Source: Clostridiales bacterium (GTDB taxonomy: Bacteria > Bacillota > Clostridia > Oscillospirales > Oscillospiraceae). Taken from it: a stretch of DNA of 5,824 nt. The DNA lies in the NCBI GenBank assembly GCA_022786965.1, contig JALFXH010000004.1, forward strand, positions 1 to 5,824, given 5' to 3'. Made by a program: the position numbers and the translations under genes. This document shows positions 1,769 through 5,824 of this stretch, piece after piece. The stretch's first letter is position 1, and each line of letters begins with the position of its first letter. Below the pieces are notes generated by a model. The model saw only the letters and a program-made list of their open reading frames with translations. It was not told where the DNA came from and ran no database searches.

Positions 1769-2110
1769 GTTGTTCGTTTGCTCAGCCGGCTTTAGAAAAG
1801 TAAAAGTAAGCCACGCAAAAAGAAATCAACCAAGAGGCGTGTAATAAAATTCTTGGCTCTGATCCTAAGCATCGGAACCATGTGCTTGTGCTTGGTTTCT
1901 GATTAGATGCTCATAAGCTCAAATGACAATGTGGCTACAATCGTTGTCGTGGAAACAAACCATTGTAGCGCCGACGAAGAGGAGGTATTCAGTTGCCTCC
2001 CCATGCAGCAATGTATGGAAAACAACTCCGTAAATTCGGTGAAAGTCTGCACTAAGGGGTAGCCTATGTAATAGGTTACCCTCTACTATTAAACATTAAA
2101 ATATCAGATT

Positions 2111-2148
2111 GAAGCAGGAAATCTTTCGGGATTTCCTGCTTCTCTTTT
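2111..2148 (+). terminator. Rho-independent terminator
   Basis: GAAGCAGGAAATC (2111-2123) pairs perfectly with GATTTCCTGCTTC (2130-2142), giving a 13-bp stem. The loop is the 6-nt TTTCGG, and the stem is followed by TCTTTTA (2143-2149). Confidence 0.75.
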
Positions 2149-2161
2149 ACCCAAAAACGAA

Positions 2162-2167
2162 AGGAGG
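2162..2167 (+). promoter_or_regulatory. Shine-Dalgarno of the giant ORF
   Basis: AGGAGG lies 10 nt upstream of ATG 2178. The nearest upstream in-frame stop is TAA 2097-2099, and no earlier in-frame ATG exists. Confidence 0.7.
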
Positions 2168-2177
2168 ACAAGCAACT

Positions 2178-5100
2178 ATGCCATCCAAAGCTGAATTTTA
2201 CCGGCAGATGGCCGAACAGGTATCGACCCAGCTTGTGGGCAGCTGGAAGGAATGGACGGCTTTTCTTACCACTGCCGCCCGCCTTTATAAATACCCGTTC
2301 CATGAGCAGATGATGATATACGCCCAGCGCCCGGACGCTACCGCCTGCGCCGAGTATGACCTATGGAATGACAAAATGGGTCGGTATGTGCGCCGTGGCT
2401 CCAAGGGCATTGCCCTGGTGGACGATTCCGGCGACAAGCCCCGCCTGCGCTATGTGTTTGATATTTCCGATACTGGCACCCGTGAACATTCCCGTACACC
2501 CTGGTTGTGGCAGTTGGAAGAACAGCATATCGGCCCTGTGTCGGCCATGTTGGAGCGCAGCTACGGCGTTGCCGGTGACGATCTCGCCCAGCAGCTCACC
2601 GATGTGGCCGGAAAGCTGGCGAGTGAGTATTGGGACGAGCATCAGAGGGACTTTCGCTACATCGTTGACGATTCGTTCCTTGCGGAGTACGATGATTACA
2701 ACATCGAAGTCCAGTTTAATTCCGCCGCCACCGTCAGTATCGCCTATGCCCTGATGTCCCGCTGTGGGCTGGAGCCGGAAAACTACTTCCAGCATGAGGA
2801 CTTCATGGCGATTTTCGATTTCAACACCCCGGCCACTATTGGCGCGCTGGGAACGGCAGTCAGCCAGATCAACCAGCAGGTTTTGCGGCAGATTGGCGTC
2901 ACCATCCAGAACTATGAGCGTGAACATATCGCGGAAAGGAGCGTTACACATGGAGAACAGCCTGACTTACACGAGGAACGGAGATTACCTGATTCCCGAC
3001 CTGAAGCTGACCGAGCAGCCGGAGAAGCCCCTGGGCAAGTACGGCAGGATGCGGAAAGCGTACTTGAAGGAACACCGGCCCCTGATCTACAACCAGCTGT
3101 TGTTGACGGAGAAACTGTACCCGCACTTGCTGGAGATCGACGAGACGGCGAACAGCCGTCTGGAGCAGATGATGCCTCAGCTGGCGAAAGACGCGGGCGC
3201 GACGGAGGAGCTGAAAGCCCGCGATCCGATGCGCTGGGTGGGCCTGATGAACACCTGCAAAGCACAGGCAGAGGAGATTCTGATGACGGAGCTTATTCAC
3301 AGCTGAGTTTCTTCCTCTCCGAAGCAGAACAAATCAGAATCATAGATGAAGCAGAGAATGTGAAAACATACTCTGCTTTTTCTTTTGCCCAGGAACAGCC
3401 GCAGCCAGAAACTACCGGCCATGAGGCAGAGTCGGCAAAACTGACCCTCCGGGAACTGCATGAGCAATACAAGCCCATCGTGCTGGAGGCTGTTACCCAG
3501 GACACCAGATACCGAAACGCCTGCGGTCACAGTGACTATGAAAATGCCGTGATCGAGGGTAATGCCGCCATCCGCCGTGCTGTCCTGGGGTCTGGAAACA
3601 TGGAGCTGCTCCGCCTCTATTCCGACACGCCGGAGTTCCGTCAGCGTCTTCATTGGGAAATCATCGACGAGACCTATCCCAAGCTCCACGAGCTGCTGCG
3701 CCCTCTCTCGGACAATAACATCGACAAAGCTATCCAGGACTGGAACGGAAAAATCGAAAGTAAACACGCCGTTGTCCGTTACATGGAGAAGCATGGGCGG
3801 GAAAAAGACACCGCCGCATGGCTGGCCCATGAGTTTGACGGCAGCGACGGCAAGACTCCGTTTTCGGTTCGCCCAGAAAGCCCTGAAGGAACGGTGCTGC
3901 CCTGGCCCAAGGTACAGCGCCGGATTGCCCAGCTCATCAAGGAGAATCGGTTCTACACCGAAGCGGAACAGGACCGATTTGACAACATCGACCCTATCGC
4001 CATCCGGGAGGCGCTGGCAGAGCGCGGCATTGTGAATGGTGAGCTGGTGGACGAGGAAAAGCTGGACAATGACTCGTTCATCCAGCGTGTTATGGCGGAT
4101 GTGGAGCAGATTGCCGCTGAAGAACAGGAGCAATCAATCGAACCGCTCTCCGATGCCGAGTATGCCCGCCAGAACCTCATTCCGGGCGAAACCACCTTTG
4201 CGTTGGATGGACGCACTTTCCAGGTCAGCAAGCTGGAACCAGATATCGACCGGGTAGAGCTGCAAGATGTGACCTTTGCAAACGCGGCGGGATTCCCCAT
4301 CTTCCGGGTTGAGCCAATTTCAGTGATCCGTCAGCATTTGGAGCAGGAACCAGAACCGCCCACGCCTGCTGTCGAGCCGGAAAAAACTCTGGATGAGGTG
4401 CTGGACGAACATCCCGTTTCCATTCAGGTAAATGGCGAGTGGCAGACCTTCCCCAATGTCAAAGCTGCCGAGGAAGCCTCTTATGAGGAATACAAGGCCA
4501 ATCTGCGCCGCACCGCCGAGAATTTCCGTATCACCGACGATCACCTGGGCGAAGGCGGCCCGAAAGCCAAGTTCCAGGACAATATCACAGCAATCAAACT
4601 ACTGAAACATCTGGAGGAAACCACCGGGCAGGCAACGCCGGAACAGCAGAAAATCCTTTCCCGGTATGTGGGCTGGGGCGGGTTGGCGGATGCCTTTGAC
4701 CCCGACAAAGAAAGCTGGAGCAAGGAATATGCCCAGCTGAAGGAGCTGCTGACCCCGGAAGAATATGCCGCTGCCAGAGGTTCCACCCTCAACGCGCACT
4801 ACACCAGCCCTACGGTCATCAAAGCGATTTACGAGGCTGTGGGCCGTATGGGATTTGAGACCGGCAACATCCTGGAGCCGTCCTGTGGTGTGGGCAATTT
4901 CTTCGGTATGCTGCCGGAGGAAATGCAAAACAGCCGTCTTTACGGCGTGGAGCTGGATTCCATCAGCGGGCGTATTGCCCAGCAGCTCTATCCCAAGGCC
5001 GACATCACTGTGGCAGGGTTTGAGACCACCGACAGGCGGGATTTCTACGATCTGGCGGTGGGCAATGTTCCGTTTGGCCAGTATCAGGTTCGGGATAAAG

Positions 5101-5824
5101 TCTATGACAAGCTGAATTTCAGCATTCACAACTACTTTTTCGCCAAGGCTCTGGATCAGGTTCGTCCCGGTGGCGTGGTGGCATTTGTCACCAGCCGCTA
5201 TACGATGGACGCCAAAGATTCCACCGTGCGCCGGTATCTTGCTCAGCGCGCCGAGCTGCTGGGGGCCATCCGTCTGCCCAATGACACTTTCAAAAAGAAC
5301 GCCGGTGCCGAGGTCGTTTCGGACATCATCTTCCTGCAAAAGCGTGACCGTCCGTTGGACATCGTGCCGGAGTGGACTCAGACCGGGCAGACCGAGGACG
5401 GCTTTGCCATCAACCGCTATTTCCTGGACCACCCGGAAATGGTGCTGGGTCGACAGGAACCGGAAAGCACCGCCCATGGTATGGACTACACCGTGAATCC
5501 CATTGAGGGGCTGGAGCTGGCCGATCAGCTGCATGATGCCGTGAAGTACATTCGCGGCACTTACCAGGAGGCCGAGCTGCCGGAGCTGGGCGAGGGCGAA
5601 GCCATCGACACTTCTATCCCTGCTGACCCCAATGTGAAAAACTACTCCTACACCGTTGTGGACGGTGATGTGTACTACCGTGAAAATAGCCGTATGGTGC
5701 GGCCTGACCTGAACGCCACCGCTGAGGCCCGTGTGAAAGGGCTGGTGGGGCTGCGGGAATGTGTCCAGCAGCTCATTGATCTGCAAATGGACGCCGCCAC
5801 ACCGGACAGCGCCATCCAGGATAA
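2178..5824 (+). CDS. giant polyvalent conjugative-element protein, N-terminal >=1215 aa (3' partial): ArdC-N-like ssDNA-binding domain, disordered linker, helical modules, N6-adenine DNA methyltransferase (N12-class / phage P1 DarB-like)
   Basis: This ORF is not in the supplied track, presumably because it has no stop in the window. I translated the frame whose codons start at positions divisible by 3, from ATG 2178 to 5822, and checked every TAA/TAG/TGA-looking site; none is in frame. The N-terminus (about nt 2250-2463: LYKYPFHEQMMIYAQRPDATACAEYDLWNDKMGRYVRRGSKGIALV) resembles the ArdC N-terminal (DUF1738) ssDNA-binding fold. Positions 2950-3300 translate to a D/E/R/G/A/P-rich, low-complexity linker. 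From about 4500 the sequence NFRITDDHLGEGGPKAKFQDNITAIKLLKHLE...YVGWGGLADAFD...NAHYTSPTVIKAIYEAV leads into AdoMet motif I, LEPSCGVGNFFG (4872-4907), and catalytic motif IV, VGNVPFG (5058-5078). GC-rich third-codon positions are seen throughout except 2950-3306. It remains uncertain whether the whole ORF is translated as one chain across the nested tnpV. Confidence 0.8.
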   Translation, partial: MPSKAEFYRQMAEQVSTQLVGSWKEWTAFLTTAARLYKYPFHEQMMIYAQRPDATACAEYDLWNDKMGRYVRRGSKGIALVDDSGDKPRLRYVFDISDTGTREHSRTPWLWQLEEQHIGPVSAMLERSYGVAGDDLAQQLTDVAGKLASEYWDEHQRDFRYIVDDSFLAEYDDYNIEVQFNSAATVSIAYALMSRCGLEPENYFQHEDFMAIFDFNTPATIGALGTAVSQINQQVLRQIGVTIQNYEREHIAERSVTHGEQPDLHEERRLPDSRPEADRAAGEAPGQVRQDAESVLEGTPAPDLQPAVVDGETVPALAGDRRDGEQPSGADDASAGERRGRDGGAESPRSDALGGPDEHLQSTGRGDSDDGAYSQLSFFLSEAEQIRIIDEAENVKTYSAFSFAQEQPQPETTGHEAESAKLTLRELHEQYKPIVLEAVTQDTRYRNACGHSDYENAVIEGNAAIRRAVLGSGNMELLRLYSDTPEFRQRLHWEIIDETYPKLHELLRPLSDNNIDKAIQDWNGKIESKHAVVRYMEKHGREKDTAAWLAHEFDGSDGKTPFSVRPESPEGTVLPWPKVQRRIAQLIKENRFYTEAEQDRFDNIDPIAIREALAERGIVNGELVDEEKLDNDSFIQRVMADVEQIAAEEQEQSIEPLSDAEYARQNLIPGETTFALDGRTFQVSKLEPDIDRVELQDVTFANAAGFPIFRVEPISVIRQHLEQEPEPPTPAVEPEKTLDEVLDEHPVSIQVNGEWQTFPNVKAAEEASYEEYKANLRRTAENFRITDDHLGEGGPKAKFQDNITAIKLLKHLEETTGQATPEQQKILSRYVGWGGLADAFDPDKESWSKEYAQLKELLTPEEYAAARGSTLNAHYTSPTVIKAIYEAVGRMGFETGNILEPSCGVGNFFGMLPEEMQNSRLYGVELDSISGRIAQQLYPKADITVAGFETTDRRDFYDLAVGNVPFGQYQVRDKVYDKLNFSIHNYFFAKALDQVRPGGVVAFVTSRYTMDAKDSTVRRYLAQRAELLGAIRLPNDTFKKNAGAEVVSDIIFLQKRDRPLDIVPEWTQTGQTEDGFAINRYFLDHPEMVLGRQEPESTAHGMDYTVNPIEGLELADQLHDAVKYIRGTYQEAELPELGEGEAIDTSIPADPNVKNYSYTVVDGDVYYRENSRMVRPDLNATAEARVKGLVGLRECVQQLIDLQMDAATPDSAIQD
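2936..2941 (+). promoter_or_regulatory. Shine-Dalgarno of nested tnpV
   Basis: AAGGAG lies 8 nt upstream of ATG 2950, inside the giant ORF. Confidence 0.6.
2950..3306 (+). CDS. tnpV: TnpV-family transposon-encoded protein (118 aa), nested in the +1 frame within the giant ORF
   Basis: An ATG at 2950 has a canonical SD, and the stop is TGA 3304-3306. The translation MENSLTYTRNGDYLIPDLKL...PLGKYGRMRKAYLKEHRPLIYNQLLLTEKLYPHLLEIDETANSRLE...GATEELKARDPMRWVGLMNTCKAQAEEILMTELI follows the TnpV pattern as I remember it (GDYL.P.L...G.wG....YLKEHR..Y..LL...L..hL.eID..A...........G.tE.LKa.d...WV..mN....AeEi...E.I). Third-codon positions are strongly G/C-biased in this frame over 2950-3306, so this is the frame under coding selection here. 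The track's upstream extension to 2764 lacks family-like sequence. Confidence 0.8.
   Translation: MENSLTYTRNGDYLIPDLKLTEQPEKPLGKYGRMRKAYLKEHRPLIYNQLLLTEKLYPHLLEIDETANSRLEQMMPQLAKDAGATEELKARDPMRWVGLMNTCKAQAEEILMTELIHS

Follow-up and report, generated by a model that had tools for sequence, protein, structure and literature searches.

Organization of the locus

The window analyzed here, i.e., the whole stretch of 5,824 nucleotides at positions 1 to 5,824 of contig JALFXH010000004.1 (assembly GCA_022786965.1, Clostridiales bacterium, Oscillospiraceae), harbors a gene of the TnpV family, tnpV, which lies entirely inside a giant open reading frame (ORF) for a polyvalent protein, on the same strand and in the +1 frame (Table 1). 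The open stretch of frame 3 reaches from 2100 to the end of the window at 5824, i.e., over 1241 codons, and each tnpV codon begins one base after a codon of the giant frame. Comparison with homologous loci indicates that tnpV and the giant ORF are a real, old overlapping gene pair and not a product of chance. Such an overprinted pair had been suggested in an earlier note made from the DNA letters alone. The details read there were recovered throughout, namely the giant frame open across the whole of tnpV with both flanks in the same frame, the AAGGAG-8 nt-ATG signal and family assignment of tnpV, the third-position bias following its frame and the composition of the peptide read across it; only the start of the giant ORF had to be corrected, to the ATG at 2178 preceded by AAAGGAGG at 2160-2167.

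Table 1. Features of the tnpV/giant ORF locus, with coordinates in the window.
Feature	Position	Strand	Frame, signal or basis
Giant polyvalent-protein ORF	2178..5824, 3'-partial at window end	+	Frame 3; open frame, >3000 homologues, top matches read through the linker
Shine-Dalgarno of the giant ORF, AAAGGAGG	2160..2167, 10 nt before ATG 2178	+	Read from the sequence
ArdC-N-like domain (predicted to bind single-stranded DNA, ssDNA) and helical region, N-terminal	2178..2948	+	Pfam; AlphaFold2 (AF2) topology
Internal Shine-Dalgarno of tnpV, GGAAAGGAG	2933..2941, 8 nt before ATG 2950	+	AAGGAG at 2936-2941
tnpV, fully nested	2950..3306	+	Frame 1 (+1 to giant ORF); 118 aa, 119 codons with stop; TGA at 3306
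Linker read in the giant frame	2949..3305	+	119 residues, G/D/A/E/R/P-rich, no F/I/M/W/C/K/N; from translation and composition
LSEAEQIxxIDEAENV motif	3315..3362	+	Homologue alignment; conserved giant-frame sequence restarts just past the tnpV stop
Putative N6-adenine methyltransferase core	4869..5078	+	Motif I ILEPSCGVGNFF 4869-4904; motif IV GNVPFG 5061-5078; from translation

The product of tnpV matches the Pfam family TnpV (PF14198) over profile positions 1-111 of 111, with 148.5 bits for a cut-off of 27 (E = 8.7e-44). In the outer gene, ATG 2178 is the first ATG of the giant frame, and the same start is picked by gene callers in sibling contigs. Downstream of the overlap, helical modules precede the methylase motifs, of which motif I contains LEPSCGVGNF and motif IV contains NVPF; the match of this region to Eco57I is sub-threshold (21.1 vs 25.3 bits) and those to MAD2/PglX are weak. 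In sibling loci the giant ORF runs on into an SNF2-type helicase, for a total of more than 2300 aa: SNF2-rel_dom, ResIII and Helicase_C, which fall beyond the window end, are found in the same open frame in sibling contigs that are 93-99% identical as well as in loci of the L001 type.

Conservation of both frames in homologous loci

For the survey of homologues, a locus was considered as nested when an ArdC-N-like domain lies upstream of tnpV and as stand-alone when tnpV occurs without that domain. The giant-frame stops by which the earlier note proposed to recognize a chance nesting were searched for across tnpV and are absent from all nested loci (0 stops in 76/76), the phase always being the same +1. 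In the stand-alone set, stops are found in 20 of the 21 genes (1-14 each), and the difference between 76/76 and 1/21 open frames corresponds to a Fisher p of 7.7e-20, a value that overstates independence, as these loci and the pairs used below for substitution rates are related by descent. The third frame across tnpV always contains 6-20 stops. The nested set is diverse: it forms 21 clusters when a limit of 70% TnpV identity is applied and 13 with a limit of 50%, its GC content ranges from 24 to 62% and TnpV identity goes down to about 30%.

Several searches contributed to this picture. The top protein homologues of the giant ORF (61-91% identity, some of them from NCBI) all continue through the linker. 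A scan of one genome per species with a 7-sequence TnpV alignment yielded 80 loci with 54-94% TnpV identity; those with the N-domain have no giant-frame stop and a frame mostly open to the locus end (>1700 codons), and those without it have 1-7 stops, with one exception. On plasmids, tblastn with TnpV gave matches of 29-36% identity within coding sequences (CDSs) annotated as 'SNF2-related' or 'helicase-related' in Clostridium perfringens, C. botulinum and Virgibacillus. In these plasmids, at 24-32% GC, the ArdC-N-like domain is directly followed by an intact ORF of 117-119 codons that has an ATG of its own and is again in the +1 frame. A nested ORF of the same phase was also found by hidden Markov model (HMM) scans in plasmids of Selenomonas, Listeria, Carnobacterium, Enterococcus faecalis and Bacillus thuringiensis (pMC183), and both the phase and the position after the ArdC-N-like domain recur in Cohnella, Monoglobus, Subdoligranulum and about 62 species genomes. 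The nested ORFs are intact at 107-119 codons with ATG and Shine-Dalgarno, and all 10 of the deep-lineage ones that were scanned pass the Pfam TnpV threshold (29-127 bits). A megablast of window positions 2100-4200 against plasmids gave no match, and no TnpV was found in the small stand-alone ArdC-like proteins of Lactiplantibacillus, Cutibacterium and Sulfobacillus.

Two records call for separate mention. Locus L103, with an open -1 frame and no N-domain, was considered as an intermediate between the nested and stand-alone states, and this was rejected: its open frame (L103:3850-4785) continues into a MobC-like gene downstream, which has a start of its own, and is the sole chance-open frame among the 21 stand-alone genes. 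In the protein P0039, a stretch in the TnpV frame is flanked on both sides by giant-frame sequence (..QIGVTISRTMSANILRKGALHMENNLTYTRNGDY...HLLEIERDGEQPSGADD...). Two indels in one metagenome contig are the simplest explanation; the case illustrates that both frames are readable and is not evidence for frameshifting.

Constraint on the overlap

The G and C content at third codon positions (GC3) of tnpV in the window is 0.84. The gene has nine T-ending codons, none of them before AA, AG or GA, a count made in the earlier note and obtained again here. Considering the window alone, the probability that no stop arises in the giant frame is 0.03 when the synonymous codons of tnpV itself are shuffled, in agreement with the few percent estimated before, and 0.0014 when codons are drawn from the flanks of the giant ORF. 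Over the nested set, resampling of flank codons leads to an expectation of 2-15 stops per nested gene, the probability of finding none being below 5e-5 in AT-rich lineages; for plasmids at 24-37% GC, 8-15 stops are expected and 0 observed. The avoidance is visible in codon usage, since T-ending codons make up 8-18% of nested tnpV vs 27-44% of the flanks of the same gene.

Substitution rates were compared for the window and 30 close nested loci (406 pairs, 265 of them with an N-domain rate of synonymous substitution, dS, of 0.1-1). The median ratio of non-synonymous to synonymous rates (dN/dS) amounts to 2.06 in the linker frame, as opposed to 0.065 in the N-domain and 0.136 in the tnpV frame, and the dS of tnpV is 0.72 times that of the N-domain. 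The TnpV protein sequence is therefore conserved. Of the two frames that the earlier note proposed to test for purifying selection, that of tnpV shows it, with a lowered dS as well, and the residues of the linker do not.

In the giant frame the overlap segment is poor in hydrophobic residues. The peptides read in the -1 frame of nested tnpV genes contain 10% V/I/L/M/F/W/C and 72% D/E/R/K/G/S/P/Q/N, vs 17% and 60%, respectively, in the same frame of stand-alone genes; part of this hydrophilicity comes from the composition of TnpV itself, in which T is rare at the first codon position. Predicted tryptic peptides of the linker frame in the window include LPDSRPEADR, AAGEAPGQVR and QDAESVLEGTPAPDLQPAVVDGETVPALAGDR. 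An AF2 model of 2175-3698 (residues 1-508) has no secondary structure at residues 259-382, i.e., the overlap, and has helices or strands in the flanks. Taken together, the lack of modeled structure, the linker dN/dS of about 2 and the low share of hydrophobic residues fit the disordered linker envisaged earlier, and the overlap peptide would accordingly be a disordered, hydrophilic linker of low complexity. As judged from sequence comparison, what selection appears to maintain in the giant frame across tnpV is mainly its openness and, more weakly, a hydrophilic composition.

Probable translation of the two frames

Each of the two frames has a start signal of its own upstream, and none has been found for the part of the giant ORF beyond tnpV. 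Of the 73 nested loci scored, 72 have a Shine-Dalgarno-like motif at a distance of 3-13 nt upstream of the tnpV start; in the window, the giant frame reads that of tnpV as ..E-R-S... Past the tnpV stop, as had been reported before, no in-frame ATG occurs until 3600, and no Shine-Dalgarno accompanies the GTG at 3360. No start is conserved at this place across the nested loci, where the first in-frame ATG lies 5-830 nt off and has no consistent Shine-Dalgarno. The read-through protein is the output of NCBI and metagenome gene callers in many records.

Based on these observations, the locus is very probably dual-coding, specifying one read-through polyvalent protein together with an internally initiated TnpV. 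One mRNA would be translated from ATG 2178 in frame 3 straight across the tnpV region, giving a protein with an ArdC-N-like ssDNA-binding head, a disordered linker of about 120 residues, helical modules, an N6A methyltransferase and an SNF2 helicase. Ribosomes at the internal GGAAAGGAG would start separately at ATG 2950 in the +1 frame and end at TGA 3306, giving the folded TnpV of 118 aa. Selection would then bear on the residues of TnpV and, for the giant frame, chiefly against stops, with a weaker preference for hydrophilicity. The signals and the conservation of both frames suggest that both products are made. By analogy with other polyvalent proteins, whose enzymes were proposed to be carried into the recipient by an ArdC-N 'header' (Iyer et al., 2017; PMC5512222), a single polypeptide may be needed, e.g., for such a header to take the enzymes into the recipient cell.

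Some points weigh against dual coding of this kind, in addition to the relatedness of the loci mentioned above. The N-domain of the window reaches 15.6 bits with Pfam ArdcN, under the gathering score of 22.6; the orthologous N-domains of L105 and L011 exceed this threshold (26.9 and 25.2 bits), and the AF2 secondary structure of the N-domain, two helices then four strands, is in the order given for ArdC-N (PMC5512222). The AF2 model of N-domain, linker and downstream part is poor (mean pLDDT, the predicted local distance difference test, of 43.5), which supports disorder weakly. Finally, the linker-frame amino-acid sequence is under no purifying selection of its own (dN/dS about 2, as expected in an overlap), so that selection could be for translation without interruption and not for a fused protein.

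This last point leads to the first alternative, in which both frames are translated and the fusion is incidental, the openness serving translational coupling to the methylase-helicase part or the avoidance of polarity, or the precursor being cleaved in the linker. The unconstrained linker residues and the lack of a downstream start are compatible with it, and proteolytic release of the modules of polyvalent proteins has been proposed (Iyer et al., 2017; PMC5512222). Nevertheless, no protease domain is found in the window, the 10% vs 17% hydrophobic residues of the nested -1 peptide hint at selection on the peptide, and ArdC-N is typically the N-terminal 'header' of one polypeptide, so that this alternative is considered improbable.

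It could also be argued that only the giant protein is made, the TnpV frame being an untranslated relic or a by-product of linker composition, and just the giant CDS is indeed listed by the NCBI Prokaryotic Genome Annotation Pipeline (PGAP) in the Listeria, Enterococcus, Bacillus, Carnobacterium and Clostridium plasmids examined. There is little room for this explanation, given the dN/dS of 0.14 in the TnpV frame vs about 2 in the linker frame, the intact nested ORFs with ATG and Shine-Dalgarno that still pass Pfam TnpV at about 30% identity, the stand-alone genes of the same family and the 6-20 stops in the third frame.

A programmed +1 frameshift near the end of the N-domain would instead produce an ArdC-N-TnpV fusion, tnpV having no initiation of its own. 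In the window, the 65 codons that precede the tnpV ATG, from 2755, are open in the tnpV frame, as such a fusion would need; in L011-L013 and L106-L108 this frame is already closed 1-5 codons ahead of the ATG, and a frameshift fusion is therefore not what these lineages encode. Moreover, the Shine-Dalgarno and ATG of tnpV are conserved, stand-alone TnpV proteins have the same length, and the openness of the giant frame would be left unexplained, which makes this alternative very hard to sustain. The weakest alternative, in which ArdC-N, tnpV and a methylase-helicase are three genes and the continuity of frame 3 is accidental, may call upon the 3% of open frames in own-codon shuffles for the window and upon the chance-open frame of L103, but its probability is close to nil in view of the 76 of 76 uninterrupted nested loci, including the AT-rich plasmids, of an N-domain frame that is never stopped, of a downstream part with no conserved start and of an invariable +1 phase.

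The TnpV protein and its possible origin

The AF2 model of TnpV (pLDDT 87) combines a beta-hairpin and a helical bundle. The profile search for the AF2 alignment returned mostly TnpVs 79-95% identical to that of the window, and the alignment is consequently shallow. No significant match to PDB was obtained by sequence for TnpV or for the N-domain, nor by fold for the TnpV model at E<=0.001. A similarity of TnpV to Xis had been proposed (PMC3158075); an Xis-like fold or role was considered and is without support, the fold search having given no PDB match at that threshold. With PHROGs, the only match of TnpV is a family of unknown function, and no NCBIfam model matches it. The fixed linkage to an ArdC-N/methylase/SNF2 protein is the first functional lead for TnpV.

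As to the direction of evolution, nesting might be ancestral for TnpV, which would have arisen or diversified in the linker of an ArdC-N/SNF2 gene, the stand-alone tnpV genes (those of the Tn4451 type, etc.) being repeated escapes. In a rough neighbor-joining tree, stand-alone TnpVs are scattered among nested lineages at >=5 places and nested ones fall on either side of its midpoint root. It is a crude tree, in which the stand-alone genes are under-sampled. Repeated escape is the more parsimonious course because a deletion is enough to go from nested to stand-alone, while in the opposite direction an insertion would have to hit both the exact phase and the exact position. An ancestral nesting is put forward tentatively and is rather unlikely.

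Neighboring genes and other elements of the window

Upstream of the giant ORF, the tail of an LPD16, YodL and DUF4316 protein and a TTRAP protein are encoded. Sibling contigs have the same neighborhood, with a topoisomerase, ParB and an ArdC-N/YodL polyvalent protein, and by this gene content the locus is assigned to a conjugative element of Bacillota.

The giant protein varies downstream of the overlap. Past the LSEAEQIxxIDEAENV...FSFAQ segment (~3400-3450), the homologues P0005, P0013 and P0015 differ in the modules inserted before a shared TLRELHEQYKPIV, which can be, e.g., some 350 aa in one block or a MutS-I domain. In this part the giant protein is thus composed of cassettes in the manner of a mosaic.

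A self-contained non-coding unit is located between the TTRAP gene and the giant ORF (1480-2149). It begins with a near-consensus extended -10 promoter (TTGTAA, 16 nt, TGgTATAAT; 1480-1507), continues with a body of about 600 nt of low GC that folds well (z = -3.7), and ends with a perfect 14-bp terminator-like hairpin followed by TCTTTT (2111-2149), directly upstream of the Shine-Dalgarno of the giant ORF. The hairpin (2111-2142) is common to related loci lacking the 600-nt insert (blastn, last 60 nt) and may be a terminator or attenuator governing entry into the giant ORF. About 100 related loci lack the 600-nt unit. Nine contigs share it at 100% identity, with only 93-98.6% identity in their flanks, and one copy with 81% identity is found in a different context (L122:1186-1804). 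When the two copies are folded with RNAalifold, 139 pairs are obtained, 14 of them compensatory, 13 compatible and 0 broken. A search of Rfam 15 gave no match at E<=1, and the unit is probably an undescribed structured RNA of about 600 nt.

Very long antisense ORFs of 278-395 aa are also present at 152-1300, 3297-4133 and 4599-5786 (all on the minus strand), opposite real frames. None of them is backed as a gene, and they are a typical product of the local codon bias.

Relation to known overlapping genes and polyvalent proteins

Embedded genes in the +1 frame are known from other systems. In the Rz/Rz1 spanin genes of phage lambda and its relatives, embedded and separated layouts coexist, and the products, both of them functional, are lysis proteins that bind each other. 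As in Rz/Rz1, the inner gene tnpV is complete, has its own start and lies in the +1 frame on the same strand. While the outer gene is small in Rz/Rz1, the outer protein here exceeds 2300 aa and the inner gene is exactly in an inter-domain linker. The comS gene, nested in srfAB of Bacillus subtilis, counts 46 codons; it does not occur outside the B. subtilis group, and the region that it overlaps encodes a catalytic non-ribosomal peptide synthetase module. Both comS and tnpV are small out-of-frame genes with an internal Shine-Dalgarno in a giant multidomain gene of Bacillota. In contrast to comS, tnpV counts 118 codons, is part of a widespread family that also has stand-alone genes, lies over a linker and is found in Clostridia, Bacilli and Negativicutes.

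Polyvalent proteins of conjugative elements were described by Iyer, Burroughs, Anand, de Souza and Aravind (2017; PMC5512222). By its predicted domains, the giant protein has the ArdC-N header and the methylase-SNF2 dyad of that account (the SWI2/SNF2 type), with MutS-I in some variants and YodL/LPD16 neighbors. Unlike here, TnpV, overlapping genes and frameshifts are unmentioned in that account, to which the nested gene adds a layer. The TnpV of Tn4451/Tn4453 is of the same family (PF14198), with a full-length HMM match and carriage on mobile elements, but the Tn4451-like tnpV stands alone next to a large serine recombinase (L017), with stops throughout its -1 frame. No description of a nested tnpV/ArdC-N-SNF2 pair was found in the open-access literature. 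Nested +1 genes being already known, the tnpV/giant pair is a new, unusually deep and widespread example.

Annotation and significance

Among the records examined, none (0) annotates both genes together. PGAP lists the giant CDS alone in plasmids of Clostridium, Listeria, Carnobacterium, Enterococcus, Virgibacillus and Bacillus, and TnpV with a truncated or unlisted giant gene in records of Selenomonas, Cohnella and Monoglobus. For loci from gut Clostridia (NCBI assemblies and ENA metagenomes), gene calls give TnpV with a truncated or no giant gene, plus an antisense ORF over the N-domain; metagenome gene callers produce either outcome, the giant gene or TnpV. The antisense ORF over the ArdC-N-like domain (window 2361-2951 and L001:5199-6002, both on the minus strand) is called as a 'hypothetical protein' of 215-267 aa whenever tnpV is called, and the annotation of the Cohnella plasmid includes a similar minus-strand ORF over the N-domain. 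The antisense ORF has no Pfam match and is almost certainly spurious, a side effect of barring overlaps. The mis-annotation is systematic: pipelines either lose TnpV, or call it and cut the giant gene short.

Bacteria offer few long same-strand nested genes for which the comparative support is solid. The present pair spans Clostridia, Bacilli and Negativicutes and resides on conjugative elements and plasmids that are very common, among them elements of gut Lachnospiraceae/Oscillospiraceae, a pXO2-like Bacillus plasmid and plasmids of Listeria, Enterococcus and Clostridium. It offers a clean natural model in which the gene of a folded protein doubles as a probably disordered linker in another frame, the constraint being visible as the avoidance of T-ending codons. 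If nesting were ancestral, TnpV would work with the giant protein, e.g., as a partner, chaperone or regulator at DNA entry.

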